Shown in pieces: positions 23,080-41,454 of a DNA stretch of 64,000 bases. Source of the stretch: Thermoplasmata archaeon. GTDB taxonomy: Archaea > Thermoplasmatota > Thermoplasmata > Lutacidiplasmatales > UBA184. Positions within the stretch are counted from its first letter, which is position 1. Each line of letters opens with the position of its first letter. A program made the translations under genes and the position numbers. The DNA lies in contig DATJNY010000019.1 in the NCBI GenBank assembly GCA_035507575.1, positions 17,681 to 81,680 of the forward strand, given 5' to 3'. The notes beneath the pieces are model-generated. The model did not search any database. It was not told the origin of the DNA and saw nothing but the letters and a program-made list of their open reading frames with translations.

Positions 23080-23377
23080 CTGCAACGCGGGTCCCTCCCG
23101 CGGCACAGCGGATTGCATCCCCATCTTTCCACAAGAAGAACCCCGATGAATACCTTCGAAGCTTTGCTATGATTCCGCTCCGCGACTGCCGATTCAGCGA
23201 CGCTTAACTAGCGAGAGGCACGTCCCCCTTCGAATCCCAACACAGCATATGTTTGCGCACGAGGAGTGCTCAGTCCTAGTCGGACCGGGTACTCTCGTGG
23301 ACCGGTGCGACACGTGCGGTCCCAGGGCGGGGTTGCGTTCGATCGTTGTCGTGCCTCGCTCGCCAGCCGAGTTGAGG

Positions 23378-25381: not shown

Positions 25382-25630
25382 AGGCAGGTCGCGTTTTCAC
25401 CTCAAACCTACCATCTTAAGGCGAGTTGGCGACGAGGGTCTGACGCGTTGGGCGCTTAGGTAAAAATGAATCGCCTTCCGGCAGGCCCAGCAAGGCTGAA
25501 TCTTCGATAGACCTAGCGACACGCCAGACATGCGATGGTTACCTCACGCTTGGCAGACCCCGCGCCGAAGCCTATCCATTCATCTCAACCGTCGTCGCGA
25601 GTGATTAGTCGGGGTGAAGCCGACTAGAGG

Positions 25631-27088
25631 CTATCCCCCCGGAATATCTCGTCCTACCGGAGGACTCGCTCCGTCTATGCGACCACGTCGCCACTGAAGG
25701 AGAACCGCCACCCCCGCGATCACCACGCCCGTCGAGATTCCAGGAATCAGAACCAGTTCCAGATACCAAGAGGAAGGAGCTGACTCAGCTCCACTTCCAG
25801 GAAGACCACCCGCGATCACGCTCACGGTGTTCGCATTGAAATCGGGGACGTAGAGGTTCCCGTTCGAGGGGTCGAATGCAGGAGCCAGAGGACTGGAAAG
25901 GACCGAGATTGTCGAAGTCACAGTGTTGGTGTCCCCTGAGATTACGCTCACGGTACCCGAGCTTGAGTTGTCGTTCGAGATGTAGATGTTCCCGTTATCA
26001 GGGTCGTAGACGGGGGACTGCGGGAGCGTCCCTACCGTTACTACTGCGACAACTGAGTTGTTAGACCCAGAGATGACGGTAACGGTACCGCTGGCGAACC
26101 CCCCCGACTGGGACGCTACGTACAGGTCTCCATTGGAGGGATCATAGGTCGGGATACCCGGCGCGGTAGCTCCAAGCGGAATCGTCGCAATGACGGTGTT
26201 CGTCGCCCCAGAGATTACGCTCAAGTGGTTGGTCTGTCCCGAGGTTTCTGCAACCGCCGGAACATAAAGATCGCCATCCCCGCTGTCGTAGGCCGGGGTA
26301 TCGGGAGACCCGCCCACCGGAACTGTGGCGATGATCGTGTTCGATGTCGCCGAGATCACGCTGACGTCATCGTCGTCCATATTCGGCACGTAGAGGTCGC
26401 TGTTGGCGGCGTCATAGGTCGGAGTATCTGGGAAGGCGCCGACGGCGATGGTTGAGATCACCGTGTTCGATGATCCAGAGATCACGCTCAAGTGACCGTC
26501 CTCCTGCGGGGTAACGGCACTCACGGGAACATACAGGTCTTCGTTCCTGCTGACGTAGGTGGGTAGTAGAGGGTATCCACCAACCGGAATCGTGCCCGTG
26601 ACAAGTTCTGTTGTGCCGGAGACGACCGTGACGTTCTCCGAAACCGATAGGGGGGAGATTGCGTACAGATCACCGTTGCCGCCATCGTAAACGACTCCCC
26701 CGGGCGGCCGAAGCAGCGAGATTGTGGCGACAACAGTGTCCGTCGAGCCAGAAATCACGCTGAGGCGCATGGCCCCTACTGTAGGAACGTACACGTTCCC
26801 GTTCGCCCTGTCAAAGACAGGGGCCTCTGGATTAGCTCCCACCGTGACATTCGCGATTACGGTGTTGACACTCGTCGACTCAGAGACGTCCGATTCCATC
26901 GCCAACTTCCGAAAATCTGCGGCATGCCCTGGGGCGGTGTCGACTTGGCGCTGAGGTTGAAGGGGCGCAAGTGGCAGCTGGGCATCCGAGCCCACTCTCT
27001 GTACGTTGAATAGAGGCATGCCCCATGGAACAAGGCCGGCCAAGCATAGTATCGCGGCAACTACGGCGACCGGCAAGAACCGAGTCAT
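25631..27088 (-). CDS. YVTN-family beta-propeller repeat surface protein with signal peptide and C-terminal TM anchor
   Basis: About ten 40-residue repeats, each containing LYV(P/A) ... VSVISG..N.V..TI.VG. There is an N-terminal signal (MTRFLPVAVVAAILCLAG) and a C-terminal TM (GVVIAGVAVLL) with a basic tail. Confidence 0.75.
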   Translation of the reverse strand: MTRFLPVAVVAAILCLAGLVPWGMPLFNVQRVGSDAQLPLAPLQPQRQVDTAPGHAADFRKLAMESDVSESTSVNTVIANVTVGANPEAPVFDRANGNVYVPTVGAMRLSVISGSTDTVVATISLLRPPGGVVYDGGNGDLYAISPLSVSENVTVVSGTTELVTGTIPVGGYPLLPTYVSRNEDLYVPVSAVTPQEDGHLSVISGSSNTVISTIAVGAFPDTPTYDAANSDLYVPNMDDDDVSVISATSNTIIATVPVGGSPDTPAYDSGDGDLYVPAVAETSGQTNHLSVISGATNTVIATIPLGATAPGIPTYDPSNGDLYVASQSGGFASGTVTVISGSNNSVVAVVTVGTLPQSPVYDPDNGNIYISNDNSSSGTVSVISGDTNTVTSTISVLSSPLAPAFDPSNGNLYVPDFNANTVSVIAGGLPGSGAESAPSSWYLELVLIPGISTGVVIAGVAVLLQWRRGRIDGASPPVGRDIPGG

Positions 27089-27759
27089 GCGCGCGTTTAG
27101 GAAGAGCATAGAGCCACTTATCAACCATGAGTACCCGCCACATGCACCGTGCCAAAAAACCTGTGTTATGACCCGCGTCTATCGACAGCCGGACCGGCCG
27201 CTTCCGGCAGGAACCGTCATTTTCGCGGAGGGGTCCGCAAGTCCTGTCCTAATCATGAACCACCGTCGAAGGAGGTCTCGCAGCTAGGTCCCCTCTTGGA
27301 CCGGTTTCAATCGATGCTGGGCTAAGAGTGGAGTCGGTTCGGAAGTTCGATCCGGCACACTCGTGCGTATGCTTGTTCGGCGGTACGGGTACCATCGCGC
27401 GAAGGTCGTAGGCACGCGTCTTGAAGATCCCAGTCCCGACGCGTCAGCCCCTCACTTTCAGAGCGGTGAGGGCCATTCCGATTCGCCGCTCACTCTGGTA
27501 GTTGCTCCCCGCGTCCGGGGGCGGCGAGCAACTGGGCAGATGTGACCTGGTCTCGGCCGGAAACGGTAAGCACGAGGGCCTCTCCACGAACCGCCTCGAC
27601 TCTCGGCTCTGTCCCCGCGGAGTGATGAACCACGGACTTTGACACGGCGGACTCGATAGCACCTTGTGCGCTGTACTGCGCGCCGAGGAACAGCCAGACC
27701 GTGGGACCAGGAATCAAACATGGGCTGAATCTCACGAGATCGGCCCGTCGGGGCTGGAC

Positions 27760-27779
27760 GGGAGGAGTGCTCCCGGCGG
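27760..27779. repeat. Direct repeat (att-like), the proximal copy overlapping the tRNA 3' end
   Basis: Identical 20-mer to 21696..21715. Confidence 0.8.
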
Positions 27780-27867
27780 GATTCGAACCCACGTTGGAGG
27801 GTTTCCCCGGCCCCGTTCGGGGGGCCACGAAGGCCCTCTATCCTTGACCGGACTAGACTACGGGAGC
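27768..27867 (-). tRNA. tRNA gene with a predicted 25-nt intron in the anticodon loop; identity uncertain (hand fold suggests anticodon UUC, Glu); CCA not encoded
   Basis: Acceptor stem GCUCCCG/CGGGAGC, U8-A9, D-arm AGUCCGGUCAA loop and T-arm GUGGG-UUCGAAU-CCCGC are all recognisable. A 100-nt span instead of about 75 implies an intron. A BHB-like fold (CCUU/GGGG helix flanked by 3-nt bulges) gives a spliced loop of CCUUCGA. Confidence 0.8.
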
Positions 27868-28011
27868 ACCGACCGAGCGAGGCGCGGACTCCCTTGAAAG
27901 TTCCCCCAGTCGCGGGGCGCGGCCCGGCCCCCCGGCGAGGGGAGTTCCGCGCCCCATCCCCGATTACCTTCGAAGTCTACGGGAAGTTCAGGGGGAGGAC
28001 GGTTACCCCCG

Positions 28012-28683
28012 GTGCTCCATCGGGCACGGGGGGAACAGCGTATCCCGGCGTCGTCGTCGAAGCCGGACCCGGAGGAGGGGGGGATCTCCATCGCCCGGGA
28101 GGGGGCCGGTGCCGAGTTCCTTCGCCGACGGATCGAGCGGCCACCGAGGATCGGGCTCTACGTGCTGCTGGGACTCGGGGCGATGACGCTGGGAACCGGG
28201 GCGATCGCCTGGCTGCTCGCGCCGACCTCGCTCGCGATCGGTCTGGGCGCGTTGGGCACCGTGCTGATGACGCTCGGGTACGTGCAGCATCGGCTGTACC
28301 GTCGCGATCTCGCGCATTGGCCGGACCGGGCGGTCCTCTGGGACGGGGGAATCGAACTCGTGCTGCACAACGGGGAGGTTCGAGGGGTCTCCTGGACGGA
28401 CCCCGATCTCGCGATCGACCTGGTCGCGCGCCCGGCGCCCGCCCCGGCGGGGCGCGAATTCCTCCTCGTCTGGATGACGGAAGGGAAGATCCCCTCCGTG
28501 GAGATCACCGAGGATGCATTCGATCGTCTCCGCGGCGTCGCGGTGCGGCACGAGCTCGCCGTCACGTCGCGGCGGCACGGGCGGACCGGCACCGAACGTG
28601 AGACGGTGGAGATCCGCCAAAGCCCGGCCCGACAACTGGGCTCGCCCTCCGCGATCGAACGGACGGAGCCCAGCCCTCGGTGA
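28012..28683 (+). CDS. Membrane protein with two TM helices plus a bacterial-PH (DUF304-like) domain; paralog of the island gene 22588..23079
   Basis: TM hairpin (IGLYVLLGLGAMTLGTGAIAWLLA.../ LAIGLGALGTVLMTLGYV) followed by a soluble domain similar to the island copy. Start is ATG 28012, or possibly later. Confidence 0.55.
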   Translation: MLHRARGEQRIPASSSKPDPEEGGISIAREGAGAEFLRRRIERPPRIGLYVLLGLGAMTLGTGAIAWLLAPTSLAIGLGALGTVLMTLGYVQHRLYRRDLAHWPDRAVLWDGGIELVLHNGEVRGVSWTDPDLAIDLVARPAPAPAGREFLLVWMTEGKIPSVEITEDAFDRLRGVAVRHELAVTSRRHGRTGTERETVEIRQSPARQLGSPSAIERTEPSPR

Positions 28684-28697
28684 ACCCGGCGGGGACG

Positions 28698-29147
28698 CTA
28701 CGGGGCCGCGGGCGGGCCGACGACCAGGGTGATGTTCAACACGCCCGAGTAACCGCTCGTCGGAGCCTGGATCGTGAGGTTCGTGTACTGAACGGGCTCG
28801 TTCACGATCGTGACGGCGACCAGTGAGAACGGTGCGGCCACGCTCGCGCCCTTGAAATTGTAGCAGAACAGCTCGCACGTCTCGGTCAGCGCGAACTTCT
28901 GCCCCGCGTGCACGGTGAACCCCGCGCTCGTGGCGGCGAGCGATCCGGCGGCATACCAGGTGACGGACGTGATGTCGACGGTCGGCGGCGGGCTGGCGAT
29001 CGCGTAGGCGTCCGCCGCCACCAGAGCGAGGAGGACGACGGCCGCGACTCCGATCGCGAGCTGGATCCAGCGGATCCGGAGCCTGGGAAGACGACCGAGC
29101 CCGGCCTGGTCGTAGCCCCCGTAGAACGTCGCCACGGCATCGTGCAT
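28698..29147 (-). CDS. Hypothetical membrane-anchored extracellular protein (149 aa)
   Basis: N-terminal TM (IQLAIGVAAVVLLALVAADAY) then a beta-rich ectodomain with N-X-T sequons. Confidence 0.45.
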   Translation of the reverse strand: MHDAVATFYGGYDQAGLGRLPRLRIRWIQLAIGVAAVVLLALVAADAYAIASPPPTVDITSVTWYAAGSLAATSAGFTVHAGQKFALTETCELFCYNFKGASVAAPFSLVAVTIVNEPVQYTNLTIQAPTSGYSGVLNITLVVGPPAAP

Positions 29148-29570
29148 CGGTCGGGGTCACGCCGAAGCCAGTTCCGCTCGGACCGGGTCGAATGGCGTGG
29201 GATTCCTGCCCCCCTCAGGACGTGGTGGTCGCGGAATGGATCCCGCTCGATGAAAGACGGTCGCTCCTCGTACTTGAGGACGGCCTTCGACTACCGAAAA
29301 CACGGAAACTACGAAGGAGTCGGCGCCCCTTACGGATCTCGAGGTGGAGCACGCTCCGCCCCGGCTCCCCCGGTGACGCGATCGAGCGGGAATCCCCCCG
29401 CGAACGATTCTCGGATCGGGCCCCTTCCGCCGCAAAGGCTGTTCGGGCGAGACGGCCTCGAGGGACCGGAGTCCCCGGACGTCGACCGTCTCCTCGAACA
29501 CCGTCGCGGGAGTCCCAACGCCGGATGTCGAAGGGCGGGGGAGCCCCTACCTCGGCCGGTCGCAGCGGGG

Positions 29571-30113
29571 CTACATCCAGAGGGCCATCAGGACCTCGTC
29601 GTCGGGCCGCCCGTCGAGCAGGACCTCGCCCTTCAACCGGCCCTCTTCCGCGAATCCCATCTTCCGGTACAGGGCGATCGCCCGCTCGTTCGAGGCGAAG
29701 ACCCCGAGCTTGACCTTGCGGACCCCGAGGCTCCGGGCCCACTCGAGTCCGCTCTCCATCAGCATGCGCCCGATCCCGCTCCCCCGGTGCTCCGGGAGGA
29801 CGGCCATGCCGAGCTCGGCCGTGTGCGCGTTCTTCGACCATTTGCCCCGGGCGAAATTCGCTCCGGCGACGACCTGGCCGCCGACCTCGGCTACGAGCCA
29901 CAGGTTGAAGCGGGGATCGTTGTCCCGGAACTGGGTGCGGATCTCGTCAGCCGTCCGGGGGAATTTCTCGGTCATCAGGTAGATCTTCTCTGCGGCGACG
30001 CGGTCGAAGTTCGCCACCCACGCCTCCGCGTCGTCGGGCCGAGCCGCACGAACGACAACCACGGATCCGTTCCGCAACCGGGCCGTGACGGGGAGCGGCA
30101 TCCGTGGCCCCAC
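29571..30113 (-). CDS. GNAT family N-acetyltransferase
   Basis: Acetyl-CoA binding motif A (LPEHRGSGIGRMLM) and motif B region (ALYRKMGF). Confidence 0.8.
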   Translation of the reverse strand: MGPRMPLPVTARLRNGSVVVVRAARPDDAEAWVANFDRVAAEKIYLMTEKFPRTADEIRTQFRDNDPRFNLWLVAEVGGQVVAGANFARGKWSKNAHTAELGMAVLPEHRGSGIGRMLMESGLEWARSLGVRKVKLGVFASNERAIALYRKMGFAEEGRLKGEVLLDGRPDDEVLMALWM

Positions 30114-30148
30114 ACCGGCGCGCGGGGAAATCGTTTCGCGCGGAAGCG

Positions 30149-30805
30149 CTAGGCGCCCTTCGTGAGCCGTCGTACGAGGCGGGCCGGGGTGGCGTAGAGC
30201 ACCCTCTCCAGATCCGGCTCCCGAACGCCCGCCCCGAGCGCGATCCGCCGGGCCTGCTCGATCGGGATCAGATCGTGCACGCTGTGCGCGTCGGAGTCGA
30301 CCACGAGATCCGCTCCCGCCTCCAGGGCGAGCCGGGTGACGAGTCCGTTGCAGAGGCTGTGGCCCCGTCGTCCCGAGATTTCGAGCGCCACGCCGTTCGC
30401 TTTCGCGAGGTCGGCGTCCTTCGCGTCCAGCAGCCCCGGGTGCGCGAGGACATCGACCTCACCGGACTCGAGGGCGGCGTGGTTGGTCCCGCGGGGCACG
30501 TGCTCCACGATCGTTTCCCCGTGCACGATGACAATCTGAGCGCCCGCGCGACGGCAGGCGCGCGCGGTCTCGGCGATGCGGCGCGGCGGCACCTTGGTGA
30601 GCTCGACGCCGACCAGGGGAATAAACGAGGTGCCGTCCCAGGCCGCGGCTTCCTGGAACAATCGCGTCAGGAGCGGTCGGGGATCCTCGAGGGCGAGGTG
30701 GTCGGTCAACGCGAGCGCCCGGTGATCGAGCGCTTCCGCTTCGTTCCACATCTCGGTCGGCGAGGTCGTACCGTCGGTGAGAAAGGAGTGCGAGTGGAAG
30801 TCCAT
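30149..30805 (-). CDS. PHP-domain metal-dependent phosphoesterase (histidinol-phosphatase-like)
   Basis: Start at ATG 30805 (MDFHSHSFLTDG, the PHP motif I HxH). Later His/Asp motifs (VIVHGETIVEH, VVDSDAHS) are present. The upstream extension to 31603 is junk. Confidence 0.75.
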   Translation of the reverse strand: MDFHSHSFLTDGTTSPTEMWNEAEALDHRALALTDHLALEDPRPLLTRLFQEAAAWDGTSFIPLVGVELTKVPPRRIAETARACRRAGAQIVIVHGETIVEHVPRGTNHAALESGEVDVLAHPGLLDAKDADLAKANGVALEISGRRGHSLCNGLVTRLALEAGADLVVDSDAHSVHDLIPIEQARRIALGAGVREPDLERVLYATPARLVRRLTKGA

Positions 30806-30943
30806 CCGGCGCCGTATCGAGCGATTCGGACGCCGTTCGGACATCGGCGCCCGGTCAGCGGTCGCAGGGCTTAGGGTTTCGGGCCGACGGGCCCCCGTCG
30901 GGTCGGACCGGGACCGATTGCGGGGGAATCGTTGTAGCCTTCG

Positions 30944-31528
30944 ATGGTTCGCGGTCGTAGGTCCCCTCCGATGACCGCCCGCCGTCGACGCGCAAAGCCG
31001 CCCACCTACTCGGTCCGCCCGAGCCGTCGGGCCGACACCGAGGTGCTCGTCCGGCACCGCCAGGGCATGTGGAAGGACATCGGCATCCACACCCCCGACG
31101 AGATCCGGAAGGCCGGTCCCCGCTACCGCTGGTGGTTGGGCCGGGAGTCGCGGGCCCGCCGGTTCTTCGGCTTCGTCGCGGTCGGCACGAAGGGGGAGGT
31201 CGTGGGGAGTGGCGCCGTTTGGCTCCAGCCGAGCCAGCCGCGCCCTGGCGCACTCGCCCGGCTCGAAATGCCGTACATCATGTCGATGTACACCGAGCCG
31301 GCGTTCCGTCGCCGAGGCGTCGGGACCCTCCTTGTCGCCGAAATGATTCGTTGGGCTCGCCGGCGCGGATTCGCCCGGATCACCCTCCACGCGTCCGCCC
31401 AAGGTCGACCGATTTATCGAGATCTGGGATTCGAAGGGTCCAACGAGATGCGCCTCAGCTTGGTCGGTGGGACGTCGTCCCCTCCACGGGCGAAGACGGC
31501 GCCCGGCCGACGCCGTCGGCGGGTCTAG
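30944..31528 (+). CDS. GNAT family N-acetyltransferase
   Basis: Motif A (RRRGVGTLLVAEMIRWARRRGF). The start may be the internal Met 30971. Confidence 0.7.
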   Translation: MVRGRRSPPMTARRRRAKPPTYSVRPSRRADTEVLVRHRQGMWKDIGIHTPDEIRKAGPRYRWWLGRESRARRFFGFVAVGTKGEVVGSGAVWLQPSQPRPGALARLEMPYIMSMYTEPAFRRRGVGTLLVAEMIRWARRRGFARITLHASAQGRPIYRDLGFEGSNEMRLSLVGGTSSPPRAKTAPGRRRRRV

Positions 31529-31654
31529 AGCGGCCCTCGCGCACCGCGCAGAGGGAGCCACCCTCGTCAGTCGTACATGGGCAGGTTGCAAGCGCACTTG
31601 CACCCATCGGAAAAAGGGGAAGGAAGGGGTTAGTCACGGGGATCCGGGTTCCCC

Positions 31655-33154
31655 TTAGACGACCTGGTAGAGTCCGACCTCAGCCGTCGCCGACGCCAAC
31701 GCCGCGTTGTTCGCCGGGTCCGTCACGAAGGTGATGAACTCTTGCGCGACGCCGGTGAGGGGCTCCAAGGAGATCAGCTCGAACGGGCGTCCGCCCACAA
31801 ACTGATCCACAGTCTCGCTGGCCGTTAGGCCGGCAGAGATGGTGCCCGAGGTTCCGGTCGTCGGTACCACACCACCGTAGACAAAGCTCGAACTAGGCGT
31901 CGTAACCGGCAAGCCTGCTCCAGAGATGTTCTGTCCCAATCCTAGGAATGGCACGATTCCGATGTTCGCCGTCGTCCGAGCGAGCCCATCCGAGGCGTAG
32001 CCAATGGCGTTGGCGCTCGCAGCGACGTCGGACAGGACTCCGGGATTACCGTTTCCCTGCTGGCCAGTCGGGTAGCTGAACCCACAGTCTGAGAGGAGGT
32101 TGTTGCTCCCGCATCCGCCGTACCCAAGGTTGGAGAATCCCGTGCCAGTCTGGGTCGTCGCAAAGCTGGATGACGACGAGGATGGGCCGCTTCCGTACCC
32201 GAGGACCTTGGCCTCGAACGTCTGTGTGGTTCCGCTTGCGTCAGAGCGCTCGATCGGAACAATCGGGGCAAGTGGTCCAGCGCCCGCCGTCGGAGTCATG
32301 ACGTACGGACCCGCGCAGATTGTCCACCCGCACGGACTAGCGTCCGTCAACGGTGTCACAATGTCGTTCGCCGCTTGTCCAGTGCCGCCCACACTATCAG
32401 CGCCCATCGCTCCAGCGGTGGTGGCACCAACGCCCGTCGGCTCTTCGGTTACCTCTACCCCGCCGTTAGACACGATTGTGTTGTTTACCCCGGCCGGAAT
32501 CTGGTCCCACAGCAGTGGCGTCCCAATCGTCGCCGTCACACCAAGCGTCGCAAAGTGCTCTCCGTTGAAGGTCCCGAGCTGGTGAATCGTTGGCGAGCTC
32601 GAACTGCCAGCTTCATAGATCGCATTCAGAGTGTCTGCACTCATGCTTCGGATGCCGTGGGAGTTCCCGCTCTGGATGACCACATCGACTGCGTCGTAGG
32701 CGACCGTCGTAATTGTAATGGTCGACGCATACTGCGAAGCGCATCCATAGCTGGACTCCAGTGTGGCGACAGTCTGCGGCGTGGAAGAAGCGCCGAGGTT
32801 GATGTTCCCCTCGCAGAGAGCGATCATCCCCGCGCCAGTTCCGCCTTGGTTGTCGCTCACGACGACATCCGAATTGTTCTGCTCGAACCAGCTTACCGCT
32901 AGCGAGCTGAACGGATACACGGACGTGCTCCCGCCGATGGTCAGCGTCGGCTCCGCGTGTTGCGTGCCGATGCCTCCCGTGATGTTCCCTTGCCAAACGA
33001 CGAGCCAGAGATAGAGCGCCGCCGCCGCCGCGACCGCGATCAGGATCAGGATCAGCGTCGCCACGACCGGCGACACCGCCCGAGCCCGATTCTGGCCGCG
33101 CCACGCGCGTCGGAACCGCTGGCCGCGTTCGACTCTCTTCGTTTTCGCGCTCAT
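31655..33154 (-). CDS. PstS-like (phosphate-binding-protein fold) extracellular protein with an archaeal class III (prepilin-like) signal peptide
   Basis: The N-terminus ...RGQNRARA|VSPVVATLILILIAVAAAAALYLW matches the archaeal type IV pilin-like signal consensus (RG/RA then S-P-V-I-A-T-hydrophobic). PstS-like motifs follow (LTIGGSTSVYPF, NQGGTGAG). The C-terminal half is Ser/Thr/Gly-rich with N-glycosylation sequons. Confidence 0.7.
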   Translation of the reverse strand: MSAKTKRVERGQRFRRAWRGQNRARAVSPVVATLILILIAVAAAAALYLWLVVWQGNITGGIGTQHAEPTLTIGGSTSVYPFSSLAVSWFEQNNSDVVVSDNQGGTGAGMIALCEGNINLGASSTPQTVATLESSYGCASQYASTITITTVAYDAVDVVIQSGNSHGIRSMSADTLNAIYEAGSSSSPTIHQLGTFNGEHFATLGVTATIGTPLLWDQIPAGVNNTIVSNGGVEVTEEPTGVGATTAGAMGADSVGGTGQAANDIVTPLTDASPCGWTICAGPYVMTPTAGAGPLAPIVPIERSDASGTTQTFEAKVLGYGSGPSSSSSSFATTQTGTGFSNLGYGGCGSNNLLSDCGFSYPTGQQGNGNPGVLSDVAASANAIGYASDGLARTTANIGIVPFLGLGQNISGAGLPVTTPSSSFVYGGVVPTTGTSGTISAGLTASETVDQFVGGRPFELISLEPLTGVAQEFITFVTDPANNAALASATAEVGLYQVV

Positions 33155-33394
33155 TTCTCTTCGTTTCCCCTCTTTGTTTTCTTGCAGTTGCTGTCTCGCT
33201 GCCGCGGGACCCTCCCTGCACGCATCGAACCGGGGAGTGGGTTGATAGCCGCCCTCGAAGGAGAAGTCGTAGGAAGTCGAACCCTCCGGCTAACTCCGTA
33301 CGAGCGTGGTCCGTCGTGTCGTGAATGGTCACCTTCGAAGAATACGGAAACTCCGGGCGGCCCGTTCATCGCGCGACCTCGTCTTCCCGATTGG

Positions 33395-35176
33395 ATGCCG
33401 AGTCCCAGCGGGGAGTCCGTCGTCGTTCCCGGCCTGAGAGAGCAACTCCCCCTCCCCCTACGGAAGGGGATCCCGGCGGGTGCGAAGCCCAAGGATCGGG
33501 AGACGCTGCTTCGGGAAGGGAAGGATCTCGAGCGCGTACTCGTCCGTCGCGTGGCGGTTCCCGAGAAGGTTTTGATCCAGGCCGAGCTCGGCTACATGCG
33601 CCGCCAGCTCCAGGGAGATCGGCGGAAGGTCGACATCACCTACGGCGTGAACCCCCCGTTCGCGTTCGTTCACATTTCCTTCAATGCGCCGACCGGTGAG
33701 TTCGACTACGATGTCCTCGAGCCGAAGCTGACGGACTCGGAACGATCCCTCGGTTCGGAGATCCGGGCGAAGATGGAGACGATCATGGGGCAGGAGGAGA
33801 TCCCCATCACCGAGGGGGTGGCCCTCGGGGAGTCGCAAGAGCTCAAGGACTACCTCCAAGAAAAGTTCCTGACGGTGCTGGATCTCTACAATATCGACGT
33901 CGCCCCGAAGCGCCAGCCGGTGATGCTGTACTACCTCTTCCGGGAGTTTCTCGGATTCGGGCAGACCGACCCGATCCTCCGCGACCCCTTCCTCGAGGAC
34001 ATCAGCTGCCTCGGGCCGCGCGTCTACATGTACGTGTTCCACCGCGTGTTCGGCTCCCTGCGGACCAACGTGCTCTACTCGAGCGAGATGGAGCTCAACA
34101 AGTACGTTTTCCGGCTCGCGCAGATCGCCGGGAAGCACATCTCCGTCTACCAGCCGATCCTGGACGCCACCCTCCAGGACGGGAGCCGGATCAATCTCAC
34201 GCTCGGGACCGAAGTCACCCGGAAGGGCTCGACGTTCAGCATCCGAAAATTCTCGGCCGATCCGGTATCCCCCATCGACCTGCTGCAGTTCGGCTCGGTG
34301 TCTCCGCACGTGCTCGCCTATTTCTGGAGCCTGATCGAGCACCACCGGTCGATTCTCATCTCGGGCGGAACGGCGGCCGGGAAGACGACGTTCCTCAACG
34401 CGATCTCGATGTTCATCCGACCCGAGGACAAGATCGTCTCGATCGAGGACACACCCGAGATCCAGATCGACCACGAGAACTGGATCCAGTCCGTGGCACG
34501 AACCGGCTACGGCGCCGCTTCGGGAGTGTCGTCGGGGGCATCGGGAGTCTCGGGCCTCTCGTCAACGGCGGGCAAGACGGCCGGGAGCGTGACCCTCTTC
34601 GACTTGCTGGTGGCGGCGCTCCGCCAGAGACCAGAGTACGTGATTGTCGGGGAGGTGCGGGGCGTGGAGGCGTTCACGCTGTTCCAGGCGATTTCGGTCG
34701 GGCACGCCTCGATGTCCACGATTCACGCCGGATCCATCGCGGAGCTCGTCCACCGCGTGGAGAATGAGCCGATGAACATTCCGCGGGTGCTGTTTCAGGC
34801 GCTCGATGCGGTCGCCTTTCCGACGCAGGTCGTCGTGGGACGCAACCGGGTGCGTAGGGTCGTCGGCGTTACCGAGATTCTCGGGGTGGATCCATCCACC
34901 AACGAGCTCCTCACGAACGACGTCTTCCACTGGAGTCCCAGCACCGACTCCTTCCAATTCCTCGGCCGGAGCTTCGTCCTCGAAGAGGTAGGAGAGCGGA
35001 CTGGGAAGAGCATCGACGCCCTGACGGCGGAACTCCAACGCAAGGCGACGTATCTCGATCTGATGACCCGCCTTGGGCTCACGTACTTCCGAGACGTGAG
35101 CCGGGCGATCGGGTCGTATTACGTGGCGCCCGACGACGCGATCCGCGAATTGGAGCGACGGATCACCGCCCGCTGA
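33395..35176 (+). CDS. FlaI/TadA/VirB11-family secretion ATPase (type IV pilus assembly ATPase)
   Basis: Walker A ISGGTAAGKTTFLNAI, Asp/Walker B box IVSIEDTPEIQ and His box GHASMSTIHAGS are present. I prefer the ATG at 33395. A Gly/Ser-rich insertion sits at 34497..34590. Confidence 0.85.
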   Translation: MPSPSGESVVVPGLREQLPLPLRKGIPAGAKPKDRETLLREGKDLERVLVRRVAVPEKVLIQAELGYMRRQLQGDRRKVDITYGVNPPFAFVHISFNAPTGEFDYDVLEPKLTDSERSLGSEIRAKMETIMGQEEIPITEGVALGESQELKDYLQEKFLTVLDLYNIDVAPKRQPVMLYYLFREFLGFGQTDPILRDPFLEDISCLGPRVYMYVFHRVFGSLRTNVLYSSEMELNKYVFRLAQIAGKHISVYQPILDATLQDGSRINLTLGTEVTRKGSTFSIRKFSADPVSPIDLLQFGSVSPHVLAYFWSLIEHHRSILISGGTAAGKTTFLNAISMFIRPEDKIVSIEDTPEIQIDHENWIQSVARTGYGAASGVSSGASGVSGLSSTAGKTAGSVTLFDLLVAALRQRPEYVIVGEVRGVEAFTLFQAISVGHASMSTIHAGSIAELVHRVENEPMNIPRVLFQALDAVAFPTQVVVGRNRVRRVVGVTEILGVDPSTNELLTNDVFHWSPSTDSFQFLGRSFVLEEVGERTGKSIDALTAELQRKATYLDLMTRLGLTYFRDVSRAIGSYYVAPDDAIRELERRITAR

Positions 35177-35179
35177 GCC

Positions 35180-36130
35180 ATGTTCGAGCCAGCGCCCACC
35201 CCGACGCAGAGGACGCGCTCCCCCGGGACGTCGGCGGGGAAGAAGAGGGTCGGTTCGATCGCGGAGAGCTACCGTAGTTTCGCGTACGGCCTGTTTGGGG
35301 AACGGTTCGACCGAGGCGAGGGGGACCCACTTCTCTCCGAGAGGCTGAAGCGGGCGGGCTACGACGTGAGCCCGGGGATGTTTCGCGGGGTCACCATCCT
35401 GACGGCGATCATCGCGGTCGCGGTCACCTTGCCGTTCACGTTGATCCTGTTCCTGCTTCTGATCCACGTCGGGTTTTGGTACGGCTACGTGGTCCTGGTC
35501 CTCGCCGTGACCGTAGGGGCCGTGTTTCTCGGGTTCAGCTCCCTCGTCAGCACACGGATCGCCAACCGAAAGGACCAGCTCGACCGCGAGTTGCCCTTCA
35601 CCTTGAGCGAGCTCTCGGTGCTCGCCAGCACGGGCACGTCTCCCGTTCAGCTCGTCCGCAGGATGGCGGACCGCGATCACGACCTGGCGATGACCGGCGA
35701 GTTCAAGCGCGTCGTCTACAAGATCGATCTCGAGGGCAAGGATCTGATTTCGGCGCTCGCCGAGACCGGTAAGGCCTCCGCGTCGAGCTCGGTCCGGGAA
35801 GCGTTCTGGGATCTCGCGAACATGATCCACCAGGGCGGCAGCCTGGACGAGTACCTTCGGACGAAGGCCGACGACGTGCTGAAGCTAAAGCGGATGATTC
35901 AGAAGCAATTCATCGAGCGTCTCTCGACATTCCTCGACATGTACGTCTCGCTCGTGCTCGTCGGCGTACTGATGATCGCCGTGGGGGCGTTCTTGATCAA
36001 CGCCCTCGGCCAGACCGTGGCGGGGCTCGACGCGAACGAGCTGTTGCTCGTGCTCACGTTCGGGCTCGTTCCGCTCGCGGTCGTCATGACCGTGATCATG
36101 ATCTCGATCGCGTACGCGAGGGCCGAGTGA
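35180..36130 (+). CDS. T2SSF-domain membrane protein (TadB / FlaJ-half-like)
   Basis: The start is 4 nt after the ATPase stop. A cytoplasmic N-terminal domain is followed by 3 TM segments and a conserved cytoplasmic helical region, which is the T2SSF architecture. Confidence 0.75.
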   Translation: MFEPAPTPTQRTRSPGTSAGKKRVGSIAESYRSFAYGLFGERFDRGEGDPLLSERLKRAGYDVSPGMFRGVTILTAIIAVAVTLPFTLILFLLLIHVGFWYGYVVLVLAVTVGAVFLGFSSLVSTRIANRKDQLDRELPFTLSELSVLASTGTSPVQLVRRMADRDHDLAMTGEFKRVVYKIDLEGKDLISALAETGKASASSSVREAFWDLANMIHQGGSLDEYLRTKADDVLKLKRMIQKQFIERLSTFLDMYVSLVLVGVLMIAVGAFLINALGQTVAGLDANELLLVLTFGLVPLAVVMTVIMISIAYARAE

Positions 36131-36134
36131 CCCG

Positions 36135-37544
36135 ATGCGAAGCGCGCTGCTTCTCGCGATCGTGCTGGTCCTCGCCCTCGCACCCCTCTCCGCGGCGCTC
36201 GCTCCGGGTGCGGCCGGACAGCCCAGCCCGATCGGCGTGATCGATGTATCGCCGGCCCCCGGGAGCGTCACTCCGTCGACCACTCCTACGCTCTACGTGA
36301 CCTACTCCGATTCCGGCGGCGACATCAACTATGCCGCGGTATACATCAATCAGATCAATTTCACGGGATTCACCGGGTACGAGTTCACCTCGACCAGCGT
36401 CACGTGTCCCGTCCCTTCGATCCTCGCGCTCAAGCCCGGACTCCAAAATGCGAGCCTGGTCCTCGGCGATGGCTCGGGAAACTCGCTCAACTACACCTGG
36501 AATTTCACGGTGAACCCGAATGCTTCCATCTCGGGTCAGCCGATCTTCTCGATCAGTGCCGGGAAGCTTCTCCTCTACATCGGCATCGCGACCGCGGTCG
36601 CCGGCGCGACGTTCTTCGCGTACATCGCCTACCTGAAACAGACCACCCGATTTGCGTTTCGAAAGTACTTCGCCACGCACCCGATCCAACGGTCGTATCT
36701 CGTCCTCTACATCCCGTGCGCCGCCGCCTTTCTCTTCCTCCTCGTCGGCCTCTCGTACGTCACGGGGACCCCCAATCTTCCCGCGTACTCCCTCGATCTC
36801 GTCTTCATCGGTGCAATATTCATTGCGCTCACCGCGTTTGGCATCGACGCGCGCACTCAGTTGGCGCGCAACCGGGCGTACGAGCGGGCGTTCGCGCAAT
36901 TCCTATTCGAAATGTCCGACGCGATGCGGGGAGGGCTCGACCCCGCGAAAGCGATCACCGAACTCGCGAAGACCCAGACGAACATCCTTCAACGCCCCCT
37001 TCGCGTCGCCTCGGATGGCATCCGGATCGGCCGCCCGTTCGAAGCCGTCCTACGCGACATGGCGCGCGGCCTGAAGAGCCCCCTGATTTCTCGGTACGCC
37101 GACCTGATCGCCGAGGCGACGACGGTCGGCGGGGAGACCGCGGTCGTCATCCATCGGGCCGCCAAGGACATGGATGATTTTGTGAAGATCGAAGAGGAGC
37201 GATCCGCCCAGCTCACTCTTCCCGTCGCGGTCATTTACATTGCGTTCGCAGTGCTCGTGGCGGTCTTGGTCGCTCTGCTTTACATCGCGCCGGATCTCGG
37301 CACGCTCAACATCGGTTTCCTCACGTCGGCAGCCAATCCCTTGAAAGGCCCTACCGCGAGCTCGGTGCCAACCCTCGCCCTGAGCACACTCCATGAGCGC
37401 TTTTTCGAGCTTACCATCATCAACTCTCTTGGCACCGGTGCGATTATCGGAGCGTTTACCGAGGGTCGCGCCCGCTATGGAATCGTGCACTCACTAGGGC
37501 TGGTCGCGGCGACCACGGTGTTGTTTCTCTTCATCTTCCCCTGA
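36135..37544 (+). CDS. T2SSF-domain membrane protein (TadC / FlaJ-half-like) with N-terminal signal peptide and an extracellular beta-rich domain
   Basis: Signal peptide (MRSALLLAIVLVLALAPLSAALA), an extracellular domain of about 140 aa with N-X-T sequons, then a TM plus cytoplasmic helical T2SSF-like region plus two further TM segments. Confidence 0.7.
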   Translation: MRSALLLAIVLVLALAPLSAALAPGAAGQPSPIGVIDVSPAPGSVTPSTTPTLYVTYSDSGGDINYAAVYINQINFTGFTGYEFTSTSVTCPVPSILALKPGLQNASLVLGDGSGNSLNYTWNFTVNPNASISGQPIFSISAGKLLLYIGIATAVAGATFFAYIAYLKQTTRFAFRKYFATHPIQRSYLVLYIPCAAAFLFLLVGLSYVTGTPNLPAYSLDLVFIGAIFIALTAFGIDARTQLARNRAYERAFAQFLFEMSDAMRGGLDPAKAITELAKTQTNILQRPLRVASDGIRIGRPFEAVLRDMARGLKSPLISRYADLIAEATTVGGETAVVIHRAAKDMDDFVKIEEERSAQLTLPVAVIYIAFAVLVAVLVALLYIAPDLGTLNIGFLTSAANPLKGPTASSVPTLALSTLHERFFELTIINSLGTGAIIGAFTEGRARYGIVHSLGLVAATTVLFLFIFP

Positions 37545-37583
37545 CAAGGGGGGCTGAAGCTTCATCCGGGACGAGCCCGCAGA

Positions 37584-38411
37584 CTACGATGGAGCCATGT
37601 ACTGAATCGTTGCGGAACCGAGGAGTCCGTCGCTGCTTGTGACGACGAGTTGGATATTGTAGGTGTCCCCAGCGGTAAGGGTGCTAGTCAGTTCCGCTTC
37701 CTCCCCGTAGAGCGTAGCGATGACGGAGGAGCCCTGCGTCACCGTCCACGCCCAAGACACGATCGTCGCATTCCCTCCTGGCTGAAATGAGTCCGAACCG
37801 TCGAGGAGCGGGATTTGCTCCGGCTCGCCCCCGGAGTAGGTCGTCAGCACCGACACGAGCGCCACGGCGGTGGGTGGCAGGAATGATTGCTCGAACTGGT
37901 TTCCGAGGAAGGTGGAGATCGCGATCGTCGCGTAGCTGGTGGGAACCGGGGCTTGGTCGGGATTCACGAACGAGTAGGTGGGGCCAGAAGTCAGGATCAA
38001 CGAGATTGTCGCCTCTTCGTCGGGTGTCAAAATGAGCTGAGATCCCGCCGTCACGAGATACATGCTATGGTTGACGAGGTCGGTGACTTGATAGTACACG
38101 AGAGGGAAGCCGTTGATCGTAAGGTCGGTCACAGCGATCGAGTTCACGTCCGAACTCGCGATCGAGAACTCGAAGGTCGCGAATCCGGTTCCCGCTGTAT
38201 CGAGCGAGGATGCAATCCCGACAACGCGGATTGATTCGAGCTGGACGAGGTGAATGTGGGCCTGCTCGGCGTTGTATTGCTGCTCGTACGACGCGACGAA
38301 CGCGGCGAGGGTGACCGCGGCGGCGATGACGATGAGAATGAGCATCAGTGTCCCGACGATCTCGGCAAGACCCCGGGAGCCGCGTGTGAGTGAGGGCGAC
38401 CGGCGCCGCAC
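37584..38411 (-). CDS. Archaeal type IV pilin-like protein (class III signal peptide)
   Basis: N-terminus MRRRSPSLTRGSRG|LAEIVGTLMLILIVIAAAVTLAAFV (prepilin-type: basic leader, G at -1, hydrophobic core with GTLML). This is followed by a Ser/Thr-rich beta domain with N-X-S/T sequons. The apparent start is GTG 38411. Confidence 0.7.
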   Translation of the reverse strand: MRRRSPSLTRGSRGLAEIVGTLMLILIVIAAAVTLAAFVASYEQQYNAEQAHIHLVQLESIRVVGIASSLDTAGTGFATFEFSIASSDVNSIAVTDLTINGFPLVYYQVTDLVNHSMYLVTAGSQLILTPDEEATISLILTSGPTYSFVNPDQAPVPTSYATIAISTFLGNQFEQSFLPPTAVALVSVLTTYSGGEPEQIPLLDGSDSFQPGGNATIVSWAWTVTQGSSVIATLYGEEAELTSTLTAGDTYNIQLVVTSSDGLLGSATIQYMAPS

Positions 38412-38439
38412 GCCCGCGGGAGCCGGAAGGTCGCTGATA

Positions 38440-38464
38440 GGAGTTCCTTACGAAAATTGCGTAA
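38440..38464. promoter_or_regulatory. Intergenic palindrome TTACG-AAAATTG-CGTAA with an AT-rich core, between the pilin gene and the flaH-like gene
   Basis: Perfect 5-bp inverted arms with a 7-nt AT-rich spacer at 38448..38464. It lies about 30-50 bp from the pilin start on the minus strand and about 65 bp upstream of ATG 38529. Confidence 0.35.
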
Positions 38465-38528
38465 TCGACCGAAGTTCTTCGCACACTCCCAATGGCATCG
38501 TTAAGCGAATACCTCCGTAACGAGTACC

Positions 38529-39158
38529 ATGGGTATTCCGGTCGAGGTTCCGGGCCTCGACACGATCGTTCCTGTGATTCCGGACGGTCACATCGTGGTA
38601 ATCGAGAGCGGGGCGGACGGCGTCAAGAGCTTCCTCTCCCGACGACTCGCGAAGACGGCCCTGCGCGCTGGCCGTTCGGTAACTTTCATCGCGTCCCGGG
38701 ACGGGCCGGAACTTTCCCAATCGCTTCTGATCGGCAACGACCTGCCACCCACGCGGGGGGACGGGTTGCGTGTTGAGGAACGGGACTCGCTGGTCGGTTG
38801 GCAAGACGTCGACTCGCTGCGCGGGGTTCTCGTCGTCGATTCGTTCTCATTCCTTGCGCTGAATCTGCCGCCAAGCCAGCTCTCCGAGCTCCTGCGCCGA
38901 CTGCGGCGGTTGGGCCACGCCCAGGGGCTCACGGTGATCCTTGCCACCGACCGCGGGATGGCGGACGAGAGGTCGGAATCGATCCTCGGACACCTCTCCG
39001 ATGGCTGGATTCAATTCCTTTCGAAGGAAGGGCCCGAGGGCCTGATTCGCTATCTACGCGTACCGAAATGGTCGGACGGAACACTCGTCGACCGCAACAT
39101 CTACTACGAGTATGACGGTAAGCGCCTTGCCATTGACCTTCGGCGCCGAGTGTTGTAA
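38529..39158 (+). CDS. FlaH/ArlH-like KaiC/RecA-superfamily ATPase-fold protein (degenerate Walker A)
   Basis: 209 aa with a RecA-like core: IVVIESGADGVKSFLS (Walker A-like, with Lys-Ser retained) and a hydrophobic strand plus D (VLVVDSFS) as the Walker B position. Size and pattern are those of archaeal FlaH. Confidence 0.6.
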   Translation: MGIPVEVPGLDTIVPVIPDGHIVVIESGADGVKSFLSRRLAKTALRAGRSVTFIASRDGPELSQSLLIGNDLPPTRGDGLRVEERDSLVGWQDVDSLRGVLVVDSFSFLALNLPPSQLSELLRRLRRLGHAQGLTVILATDRGMADERSESILGHLSDGWIQFLSKEGPEGLIRYLRVPKWSDGTLVDRNIYYEYDGKRLAIDLRRRVL

Positions 39159-39170
39159 GGAGGCTCGCTC

Positions 39171-40289
39171 ATGCCCGGATCTTCCTACGATCGATTCGGT
39201 CTCACGAGCAATCCCTTCCGGGACCTCGCCAGCGAGAGCTTGGAGGATGTGGAGATCTACCACGTCAATCTCGACATCGACCGAACCCTCGATACGATCC
39301 GAGAGGAGATCTACGCGAAGGAAAATCGCGCGCTGATCGCGCTCGTGGGCCTGCACGGAGCCGGCAAGACGGAACGGCTCCTGATGGCTCAGGAAGAGGC
39401 GAGGGATCGAGGAGCCTTCAGCGTCTACTTCGACATCACCACCAAGACCACGTGGGTAACACGAGGGCTGGCCGCGTCGTTCCGCAAGTCGGCGAATCTC
39501 GGTGGATTCGCCCAGATCTTCAGCGCCCCGCGGTGGTACCGGGACATCGCTGCCCTCGAGCGGATGAAGGACCGAAACTACGATCCGTTGAAAGCCGGCC
39601 GCGCTCTCGCCGAGGCCCTGAACGCGCACGCGCCCGCGTTTCTACTGCTGAACGACCTGCACAACCTCGCCGCGTCGGATGAACTGGGAATCTTCGCGAA
39701 GGTCCTCCAAGAGATGGTCGACAAAATCAAGCCGGGGGTTCTCGTCATGTTCGGGTGCTTTCCGAGCTTCATGCTGCAACTCGCTACGCATCAGGCTCCC
39801 CTGTCGAGCCGGATCAACCGAACCCTAATTCTCCCCCGCCTGACCCCGGAGGAAGCTTCGTTGCTGCTGGCGAAGAAACTATTGGCCAAACGACTGGTCG
39901 AAGGACTGGATCCGCTCTACCCATTCGATCAAGAGTCCGTGTCGCGACTGAACCAATACGCGTACGGCAACCCCCGAAGGCTGCTCGAGCTCGCGGACGT
40001 TTGCATCGAATTCGCGGTAGCCCACCGCTCCTACCGCATCGACACGGAGATCGTGCGCAGTGCGCTCCTCGAACGTCAAGTCCAGGACCTGAAGTCGGAG
40101 GTCGAGGCGCGATCGGACGGGTGGAAGGAGGACCCCCCGGCGGGAGGGATCGAGCCCCTACCCAACGACACCGTTTACATTGAAGGGAGGGCGCCCGCCG
40201 GAGCAACGATCCCCACAGCGATCACCCCGACCGCTCAGCGCAGTTCCGACCGGACTACTAGTGGTGGGCCGGGGCCGGCTCCCCCATGA
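39171..40289 (+). CDS. AAA+ ATPase, ExeA/GspA-like
   Basis: The N-terminal FGLTSNPF motif is typical of ExeA-like ATPases. Walker A is LVGLHGAGKTERL and Walker B is LLLNDLHNL. The C-terminus is Pro-rich. Confidence 0.6.
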   Translation: MPGSSYDRFGLTSNPFRDLASESLEDVEIYHVNLDIDRTLDTIREEIYAKENRALIALVGLHGAGKTERLLMAQEEARDRGAFSVYFDITTKTTWVTRGLAASFRKSANLGGFAQIFSAPRWYRDIAALERMKDRNYDPLKAGRALAEALNAHAPAFLLLNDLHNLAASDELGIFAKVLQEMVDKIKPGVLVMFGCFPSFMLQLATHQAPLSSRINRTLILPRLTPEEASLLLAKKLLAKRLVEGLDPLYPFDQESVSRLNQYAYGNPRRLLELADVCIEFAVAHRSYRIDTEIVRSALLERQVQDLKSEVEARSDGWKEDPPAGGIEPLPNDTVYIEGRAPAGATIPTAITPTAQRSSDRTTSGGPGPAPP

Positions 40290-41289: not shown

Positions 41290-41318
41290 CCCCCGAGGCT
41301 CTACGTAGGCTTAAGCGT

Positions 41319-41338
41319 GAAATAAATAGAAACAATAG
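41319..41338. promoter_or_regulatory. AT-rich TATA-like element (GAAATAAATAGAAACAATAG) in the divergent spacer
   Basis: It lies about 30-50 bp upstream of the regulator start (41289, minus strand). The spacer is otherwise GC-rich. Confidence 0.35.
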
Positions 41339-41454
41339 GGCTATGCTACGAAGTTTACGAGACCCGCGTAGCCTTCGAAGAAAGCCTGAGTGCTCCGAGG
41401 TAAAGTCCGCAGTTCGAAGCAACGTTGATTACTTGATTCGCGTCGATACGGAGC

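Follow-up and report, generated by a model that had tools for sequence, protein, structure and literature searches.

A pilin-type PstS encoded beside its own filament-assembly genes: a likely surface-displayed phosphate bindosome of uncultured soil Thermoplasmata

Background

For two decades Sulfolobus has been known to make substrate-binding proteins whose signal peptides are of the pilin type. The Saccharolobus/Sulfolobus bindosome comprises the BasEF ATPase and platform, the BasABC pilins and the sugar-binding proteins GlcS, AraS and TreS, which carry class III signals and whose genes lie with their transporter genes, far from bas. To our knowledge the arrangement of these binding proteins on the cell surface has never been seen, one reason being that many cargoes share one distant machine. 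Here we analyze a stretch of 64,000 nucleotides (64 kb; the window) of a Thermoplasmata archaeon (GenBank assembly GCA_035507575.1, contig DATJNY010000019.1, positions 17,681 to 81,680), and in it a gene for a 499-aa protein that joins a pilin-like N-terminus to a PstS-type phosphate-binding domain. This protein is called pilin-PstS below, and the gene lies beside a set of type IV filament assembly genes (Table 1).

Class III binding proteins occur widely in archaea, euryarchaeal lineages included, and may insert into a pilus and "functionalise" type IV filaments (Sivabalasarma & Albers, bioRxiv 2026, 10.64898/2026.04.22.720090). The proteins described there lie mostly beside ABC transporters and not in filament loci, whereas the cassette analyzed here holds one cargo and one machine in strong synteny; the main text of that study makes no mention of phosphate or PstS. 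Phosphate is also unmentioned in a 2016 census of archaeal type IV pili, which found no secretion ATPase in Methanomassiliicoccus (PMC4858521). In multidrug-resistant Pseudomonas aeruginosa, PstS is found on extracellular filamentous appendages under phosphate limitation and was described as having a role in adhesion and virulence (PMC2242829, PMC3949141). Those appendages are bacterial, involve no pilin fusion and are assembled by an unrelated route, and offer a functional analogy only. In full-text literature searches, no account was found of an archaeal pilin-type PstS bearing a class III signal. Judged from sequence comparisons and a structure model, the locus analyzed here is most likely a surface-displayed "phosphate bindosome" kept in uncultured soil Thermoplasmata.

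Results and Discussion

The open reading frame of pilin-PstS, recognized in an earlier reading of the bare sequence (the original prediction), is a real gene, as the identical 499-aa protein is present in two independent metagenome assemblies (JGI 3300032895 and ENA ERZ27256528). A word-indexed search listed more than 300 homologues; the best 120 of them ranged from 437 to 605 aa, almost all with at least 45% identity, and many of the homologues are annotated by JGI as "flagellin-like protein". An exhaustive phmmer search of 1.84 billion cluster representatives gave 300 relatives at E<=1e-3 and 47 at E<=1e-30. Since an exhaustive scan of this size returned only 300 relatives, the family is small and well defined. 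The conservation figures below were taken from an alignment of 116 family members (A1), about 50% identical overall.

The N-terminus of pilin-PstS reads MSAKTKRVERGQRFRRAWRGQNRARA/VSPVVATLILILIAVAAAAALYLWLVVWQGN, the slash marking the predicted cleavage site. In the cleavage region, RARA/VSPVVATLILILIAVAAAAALYLWLVVW, a basic pre-sequence is followed directly by a hydrophobic helix of at least 20 residues, which is the class III criterion. The TIGR02537 model (arch_flag_Nterm) scored 29.1 bits against a cutoff of 20, and in a search of the PDB sequences residues 27-85 aligned to residues 1-56 of mature Iho670, the adhesion-filament pilin of Ignicoccus hospitalis (5kyh/3j1r), with residues 27-51 matching the 3j1r filament core from its residue 1. 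The first 25 mature residues of the two proteins are near-identical in character (VSPVIATLLLILIAVAAAVLLYTWV vs VSPVVATLILILIAVAAAAALYLWL). The helix of Iho670 forms the filament core, and its outer domain is beta-rich and unrelated to the PstS fold of pilin-PstS. Around the cleavage site A1 has A or G at -1 in 114 of 116 members, K or R at -2 in 108, V at +1 in 113, S at +2 in all 116 and P at +3 in 115. Conservation reached 97% over the helix (aa 27-56), 72% over the binding-protein core and 42-50% over the insertions described below. Because TIGR02537 scored above its cutoff, the Iho670 match starts at mature residue 1 and the helix is 97% conserved, pilin-PstS is assigned a class III (prepilin-type) signal peptide, as the original prediction held. 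Such constraint on aa 27-56 would be expected of a helix recognised by a peptidase and a platform and packed in a filament core, and not of a mere anchor. In the AlphaFold2 model the helix spans residues 29-61 and is followed by a short linker with a predicted local distance difference test (pLDDT) below 50 at residues 61-64. Within the 64 kb, class III-type N-termini were found only in pilin-PstS and in a second pilin of the cassette, which has a PKD-like domain.

The remainder of the protein has the fold of a phosphate-binding protein. Pfam PBP_like_2 scored 42.5 (gathering score 27), covering residues 66-183 alone, and the NCBIfam PstS models likewise cover only the N-lobe. A profile of the family nevertheless aligned to Clostridium-type PstS structures in four colinear blocks that reach the C-terminus (profile 68-127, 285-305, 343-386 and 415-456 against residues 4-63, 116-136, 150-193 and 189-232 of 4q8r). 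The AlphaFold2 model, built on A1, had a mean pLDDT of 88.5 and a predicted TM-score (pTM) of 0.83, with a two-lobe fold extending to residue 499. When this model was compared with the PDB by Foldseek, the top 49 matches were all phosphate-binding proteins (PstS, PhoX and DING), with TM-scores up to 0.81 and alignments covering 426-460 query columns. The best match was the phosphate-bound 4gd5 (E 4.8e-13, target TM-score 0.80). The assignment to the phosphate-binding type made in the original prediction is borne out by these scores.

The same alignments show where the extra length comes from. Pilin-PstS was said to exceed a typical PstS by about 130 aa, and the measured excess is indeed about 130-150 aa; relative to 4q8r it consists of the 66-aa pilin module and three internal insertions of about +105, +24 and +28 aa. 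The extended Ser/Thr/Gly-rich C-terminus of the original prediction, and with it any C-terminal extension or linker, was discarded, the profile and fold alignments being colinear to the C-terminus. What had been read as poly-Ser/Gly linkers are short runs in loops (GSSSS at 183 and SSSSSS at 325). Nor are the composition and the N-X-S/T sequons distinctive: the mature protein contains 10% S, 11% T and 13% G and four sequons, and the canonical PstS encoded in the same window contains 12% S, 10% T and 12% G and seven sequons. A second pstS is present, as the original prediction held, and "paralog" is a loose word for the pair; recent paralogy was rejected, since the two proteins share two short BLAST segments alone (E 0.009) and belong to different PstS subfamilies.

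In E. coli PstS, phosphate is coordinated by T10/F11, S38, D56, R135, S139, G140 and T141, and D137 buttresses R135. Mapped on an E. coli sequence that we take to be correct (its length is right and the residues stand at the published numbers), T10/F11 correspond to S76-T77-S78 of pilin-PstS (in GGSTSVYP), S38 to T106, D56 to S124, R135 to R303, D137 to D305, S139 to S307, G140 to G308 and T141 to T309. S76, S78, R303 and G308 are invariant in A1, and T77, S124, D305, S307 and T309, as well as the neighbouring T310, are conserved in at least 90% of its members; T106 is variable (neither invariant nor conserved to 90%), and the flanking G104 and G105 are invariant. According to the original prediction, loss of the anion-binding residues would argue for a ligand other than phosphate. 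The structure model and the PstS alignment indicate that these residues are conserved, except for the change of D56 to Ser and the variable T106, and because they are kept, the "repurposed binding fold" that it offered as an alternative is unlikely.

The nearest described PstS proteins are those of the PstS-2 subfamily (Clostridium perfringens PBP-1, 4gd5/4q8r), with which pilin-PstS shares the two-lobe fold, the motifs GSTSV, GS/T-x-AG, G-x-A-S and R-x-D-x-SGT, and linkage to pstCAB-phoU. It differs from them in having a pilin N-terminus in place of a lipoprotein, Sec or transmembrane anchor, about 160 extra residues and three Cys pairs, and in scoring far below the family cutoffs.

Four close relatives of the long-form PstS domain (P0123, P0130, P0134 and P0138) were found to lack the pilin helix and to have an ordinary transmembrane segment in its place, with a stalk of one to five repeats of a beta domain of about 90 aa (YPVTF.ESGLP..T.W.V). 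In three of them (P0130, P0134 and P0138) the Arg and SGT residues of the phosphate site are lost, which suggests a repurposed sister group.

Conservation of the cassette was determined by a locus scan with one genome per GTDB species, which gave 63 loci. All but three are titled Thermoplasmata metagenome-assembled genomes (MAGs), under names such as SPRUCE, AcS/SubAcS, MFD and UBA184, which we take to denote peat and acidic-soil datasets, and one is named Candidatus Lutacidiplasmatales. The three exceptions are two loci on 2.7-3-kb contigs binned as bacteria and one titled a Methanobacteriota MAG. Linkage was tallied over 62 species-level loci by tblastn of the window proteins. The ATPase gene divergently adjoins pilin-PstS in 42 of the 47 loci with at least 2.5 kb of upstream sequence, and 33 of the 37 loci with at least 7.5 kb hold the full set of six machinery genes. 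The gene for a protein with PhoU and AbrB domains is linked to the cassette in 34/36 loci. In 14/36 loci pst genes lie just beyond the cassette, and 22/36 have no pst genes within 10 kb; in loci L025, L026, L032 and L036 pstS-pstC-pstA directly follow pilin-PstS. Gene calls combined with Pfam searches showed the same gene order on four long contigs. Conservation across loci is higher for the machinery proteins (ATPase 65-81% identical) than for pilin-PstS (40-60%). Several MAGs hold two copies of pilin-PstS on different contigs (L023, L050, L052 and L069 vs L017, L031, L012 and L013). L050, L052 and L069 each have an adjacent machine, L023 has none within 10 kb and L013 is without upstream flank.

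The exhaustive search also revealed a tier of short-form pilin-PstS proteins, about 330-420 aa long and 30-37% identical, in which most of the insertions are absent. Their matches start at query residue 22-26, so the pilin N-terminus is present (e.g. K-x-A-x-A/VSPVIATLMLVLV). One is annotated from a Methanomassiliicoccales MAG. The same cassette surrounds two of the short-form genes, with a gene for the ATPase, a pair of T2SSF genes, one KaiC-like gene and one for a pilin with Pilin_N and PKD domains. In one of these loci (L071) the short-form gene is followed directly by a gene for a 1122-aa fused PstC-PstA (TIGR02138 427 bits and TIGR00974 398 bits, both above cutoff), PstB (418 bits, above cutoff) is encoded on the other side of the machinery, and no gene for a binding protein other than pilin-PstS was found in the locus. 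In L070 the gene after the short-form pilin-PstS starts like PstC before the contig ends. These short-form loci provide the strongest argument that pilin-PstS would be a working partner of the Pst importer and that the filament machine would exist for its deployment. A pilus- or bindosome-tethered scavenger had already been proposed in the original prediction; with the adjacent machine in 42 of 47 loci, the short-form cassettes, locus L071 and the ligand residues, this reading stands on much stronger grounds, because the gene context adds evidence that was not used then.

Of the described systems the cassette works most like the Sulfolobus bindosome, as far as can be judged from its genes. Both have an ABC substrate-binding protein that bears a class III signal and a pilin-like helix, and a type IV pilus-type ATPase with a platform is believed in both cases to bring it to the surface. 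The cargo is sugars in Sulfolobus and would be phosphate here, and the binding-protein gene, which in Sulfolobus accompanies the transporter, lies here beside its own machine. The machine is not orthologous to Bas: the 593-aa ATPase scored 165.9 with the BasE model (cutoff 1000), and BasF scored 29.9 (cutoff 1300). In place of the three small BasABC-type pilins of the Bas locus there are one 275-aa PKD pilin, the FlaH-like and AAA_22 NTPases and the PhoU-AbrB regulator, and the lineage is Thermoplasmatota and not Sulfolobales. Since the BasE and BasF cutoffs are missed, small BasABC pilins are absent and the cargo gene lies with the machine, the cassette is not a member of Bas.

The best reading of what is new here is a phosphate-specific, self-contained, bindosome-like cassette kept across Thermoplasmatota orders, in which one phosphate cargo has an ATPase, a platform, a second pilin and a phosphate-type regulator of its own encoded beside it, in some loci with the whole set inside a pst operon. 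Such a cassette would be direct genomic evidence of a type IV filament machine serving nutrient capture, and would carry the bindosome idea beyond sugars and Sulfolobales to phosphate and Thermoplasmatota. The defined eight-gene set could reveal what a bindosome looks like, and suggests how abundant uncultured archaea of acidic soils and peat may compete for scarce, mineral-sorbed phosphate.

The full mechanism that we favour, with a probability of roughly 0.58, is that pilin-PstS is a phosphate-binding protein on an archaeal type IV pilin chassis that is displayed outside the cell and feeds Pst. The basic 26-aa class III signal would be cleaved by a PibD-type prepilin peptidase, presumably encoded outside the window, baring the near-invariant hydrophobic helix (VSPVVATLILILIAV...). 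The machine encoded by the divergent neighbour genes, a FlaI-like ATPase and a two-piece FlaJ/TadC-like platform, would then lift the subunit from the membrane, with the FlaH/KaiC-like ATPase and the AAA_22 NTPase probably acting as cytoplasmic accessory or regulatory parts. The subunit may be polymerised, alone or with the second PKD pilin, into a surface filament or a short pseudopilus, which the second pilin perhaps primes or caps. Many PstS heads outside the cell would capture orthophosphate, the predicted ligand, through the conserved Ser/Thr residues and the R-x-D-x-S-G-T site, and would hand it over to the adjacent PstCAB, with or without the membrane-anchored canonical PstS as an intermediate. 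The linked PhoU-AbrB regulator and PhoU probably make expression depend on phosphate status.

A bolder form of this mechanism, which we put forward only tentatively and think more apt to fail than to hold, makes pilin-PstS the major subunit of a true extracellular filament, a "phosphate antenna" that a FlaHIJ-like motor of archaellum descent would polymerise in non-motile Thermoplasmatota. If true, this would be the first type IV filament with a solute-binding protein as its principal building block, and the locus would be a compact genetic model (one cargo, one machine, one regulator) of the never-visualised archaeal bindosome.

Several observations weigh against the favoured mechanism. An ordinary PstS for the transporter is already encoded in the window, and in 5/47 loci (L020, L023, L042, L056 and L067) the pilin-PstS copy has no adjacent machine. 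A Pfam scan of the multi-transmembrane open reading frames of the 64-kb window found no Peptidase_A24, and those of the related loci, about 1 Mb, contained no G-x-G/A-D-x-K motif. Because both scans were negative, the prepilin peptidase for pilin-PstS must be encoded elsewhere or be very divergent. At about 430 aa the head is large for a subunit of a helical pilus. The substitution of D56 by Ser is the sole chemical change at the ligand site, the Arg that follows this position in Clostridium-type PstS is variable in the pilin-PstS family, and approximately 160 inserted residues surround the PstS fold, so that the ligand or its protonation state could differ. The protein also misses the curated NCBIfam PstS cutoffs (TIGR02136 67.1 against 206.6; TIGR00975 37.3 against 205). 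Pilin-PstS is therefore classed as a divergent relative of PstS and not as an equivalog: its fold, ligand residues and neighbourhood fit, and its curated score does not.

Four rival explanations were weighed against a phosphate-capturing pilin that feeds Pst. Were the structure an adhesion pilus, its PstS-fold heads would bind surface phosphate groups (Fe/Al-phosphate minerals, phosphorylated polymers or other cells) and deliver nothing to a transporter. The PKD or larger adhesin-like domains of the second pilin (264-918 aa), the extracellular Ig-like domain of one platform protein, the adhesion role of the P. aeruginosa PstS appendages (PMC2242829, PMC3949141) and the 22/36 loci without pst genes within 10 kb would suit such a pilus. 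We hold it to be unlikely, because residues of a closed cleft for a free tetrahedral anion are kept, the PhoU-type regulator is linked in 34/36 loci and pstCA or pstSCA directly adjoins in L071, L070 (start of pstC), L025, L026, L032 and L036. It is similarly improbable that the pilin-like N-terminus is simply a (cleaved) membrane anchor, that the machine builds a filament of the second pilin and that adjacency reflects co-regulation. The machine-less copies listed above and the flexible, low-confidence linker at aa 61-66 of the model would fit, as would the fact that no filament has ever been visualised for the Sulfolobus class III binding proteins (10.64898/2026.04.22.720090). However, 97% conservation over 30 residues with near-invariant -2, -1 and +1 to +3 positions is more than a simple anchor needs, the canonical PstS of the window does with an unrelated plain transmembrane segment, and pilin-PstS remains paired with the ATPase in homologues of about 30% identity and in more than one order.

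That the PstS fold has been repurposed for arsenate, sulfate, phosphite, polyphosphate ends or a phosphoester seems quite improbable. Pilin-PstS has Ser at the position of D56, by which E. coli PstS selects protonated phosphate and not sulfate, the scores fall below the curated PstS cutoffs, the lineage-specific insertions are large, and the loss of Arg and SGT in P0130, P0134 and P0138 indicates that the fold can drift. On the other hand, Ser occupies the D56 position also in C. perfringens PBP-1, which was crystallised with phosphate (4gd5), the pilin-type subfamily shows little or no variation in R-x-D-x-S-G-T and the two Ser/Thr loops, and the genomic partners are PstC, PstA, PstB and PhoU. 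Hardly credible is a divergent archaellum, in which FlaH/I/J-like genes would build a rotating filament whose archaellin happens to bear a PstS-like head. The likeness to the FlaH-FlaI-FlaJ core is real: FlaI is the best family match of the ATPase (385 bits), a gene for a FlaH-like RecA/KaiC protein lies close by, T2SSF domains are present in the platform, and many homologues bear the label "flagellin-like protein". All models stayed under cutoff, though (FlaI 385 against 550, ArlH 30.5 against 215 and FlaJ 51 against 550), the platform is split into two genes, and FlaF, FlaG, FlaCDE, FlaX and an archaellin domain were not found among the cassette proteins. Since, in addition, Lutacidiplasmatales have been described as non-motile and without archaellum genes (PMC9287336), the cassette is judged, from its genes and those described for the host order, not to be an archaellum.

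The features of the locus are collected in Table 1. A single contiguous phosphate neighbourhood of 15 kb extends from pilin-PstS to the canonical pstS; the pst operon (pstSCAB-phoU) starts 9 kb from pilin-PstS, with cassette genes alone between them. As stated in the original prediction, the canonical pstS has a plain transmembrane anchor and heads pstC, pstA, pstB and phoU.

Table 1. Coordinates of the features of the pilin-PstS locus in the 64-kb window (amino acid positions are those of pilin-PstS unless stated otherwise; a slash marks a predicted cleavage site)
Feature	Coordinates	Strand	Evidence
pilin-PstS gene, 499 aa: class III signal peptide, pilin helix and PstS-type domain	31655..33154	minus	
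aa 1-26, basic pre-sequence ending R-A, predicted class III cleavage site RARA/VSPV	33077..33154	minus	TIGR02537, Iho670 alignment, A1
aa 27-61, predicted hydrophobic N-terminal pilin helix, then low-confidence linker aa 61-66	32972..33076	minus	
aa 67-499, PstS fold of two lobes holding three internal insertions; conserved Cys pairs C114/C138, C275/C280 and C348/C357	31658..32956	minus	
aa 303-309, RSDASGT, equivalent to E. coli PstS R135-x-D137-x-S139-G140-T141	32228..32248	minus	
Divergent promoter region, 240 bp, between pilin-PstS and ATPase genes: TATA-like box, 27-nt repeat/palindrome block, GGGGAAA before the pilin ATG	33155..33394		
T2SSE-family assembly ATPase, 593 aa, closest to archaellum FlaI	33395..35176	plus	Pfam T2SSE 111 bits
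Platform protein half 1, one T2SSF domain, FlaJ/TadC-like	35180..36130	plus	
Platform protein half 2, one T2SSF domain	36135..37544	plus	
Second pilin, 275 aa from GTG start, class III-type N-terminus SRG/LAEIVGTLMLILIV and PKD-like domain	37584..38411	minus	
KaiC/RecA-superfamily protein, 209 aa, weakly FlaH(ArlH)-like	38529..39158	plus	
P-loop NTPase, AAA_22/ATPase_2 type, 372 aa, invariant Walker A and B motifs	39171..40289	plus	
AbrB/MazE-type DNA-binding domain fused to PhoU domains	40258..41289	minus	
Single-transmembrane glycoprotein-like protein, 186 aa	41455..42015	plus	
phoU	42050..42781	minus	TIGR02135 135 bits, above cutoff
pstB	42778..43551	minus	TIGR00972 329 bits
pstA	43548..44462	minus	
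pstC	44469..45413	minus	TIGR02138 224 bits, above cutoff
Canonical transmembrane-anchored pstS, E. coli-type subfamily	45506..46804	minus	

The second half of the platform begins with a Sec-type signal and an extracellular, sequon-rich Ig-like domain of about 110 aa, which is unusual among FlaJ/TadC-type platforms; its homologues gave weak matches to Big_5, Big_7 or Big_13. The public gene call of the second pilin (253 aa, start at M23) cuts off the class III signal, and the GTG at 38411 restores RG/LAEIVGT. This N-terminus, [KR][GA]/[LI][AS]E[IV]VGTLMLVLIVVAAATAF, is kept in 37 loci. Searches of the PDB with the 372-aa NTPase, both single-sequence and profile, returned nothing useful, and the Pfam AAA_22/ATPase_2 match is the only support for its assignment. 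The PhoU-AbrB protein is a candidate phosphate-responsive regulator on the basis of its domains. The 186-aa protein has a sequon-rich ectodomain without a family match; homologues are linked to the cassette in 22/62 loci, beside phoU in some cases and in others on the opposite strand immediately downstream of pilin-PstS.

The cassette and several secreted or membrane proteins are located in a stretch of low G+C content (22000..42000, 57-63% against about 70% on either side). No tRNA genes were found anywhere in the 64-kb window, and no island markers were found for this stretch. It includes, at 25631..27124 (minus), a 497-aa protein with about eight repeats (SVISG.tntViaTI.VG..P..p.YD..nGdLYV), YVTN beta-propeller-like, and a C-terminal transmembrane anchor; no Pfam match was obtained for it. 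At 23249..25381 (plus) a 710-aa Ser/Thr/Cys-rich secreted protein is encoded whose C-terminus, from about aa 574 (GCVASGTPILTPEG...), has weak Hint_2/intein-splicing matches, and which may be a Hint-domain autoprocessing protein.

In the promoter region between pilin-PstS and the ATPase gene, a conserved TATA-like box lies at a distance of about 27 nt from the ATPase ATG. A 27-nt block (GCACGGAGATnCCGTAGTCTCCGTAGG), which includes the palindrome ACGGAGA-N9-TCTCCGT, adjoins this box in 44 loci, the window copy being at 33332..33358 (minus). A weaker copy lies upstream of the PhoU-AbrB gene at 41345..41382 (minus), and the exact 11-mer TTCTTCGAAGG, common to the window block and this region, occurs only twice in the 64 kb. 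The block may be an operator shared by the pilin/ATPase promoter and the PhoU-AbrB gene, a suggestive pattern that we regard as a lead only. Weaker position weight matrix matches were also observed at 29290 (minus) and 27967 (minus), upstream of the genes at 28698..29147 and 28012..28683.

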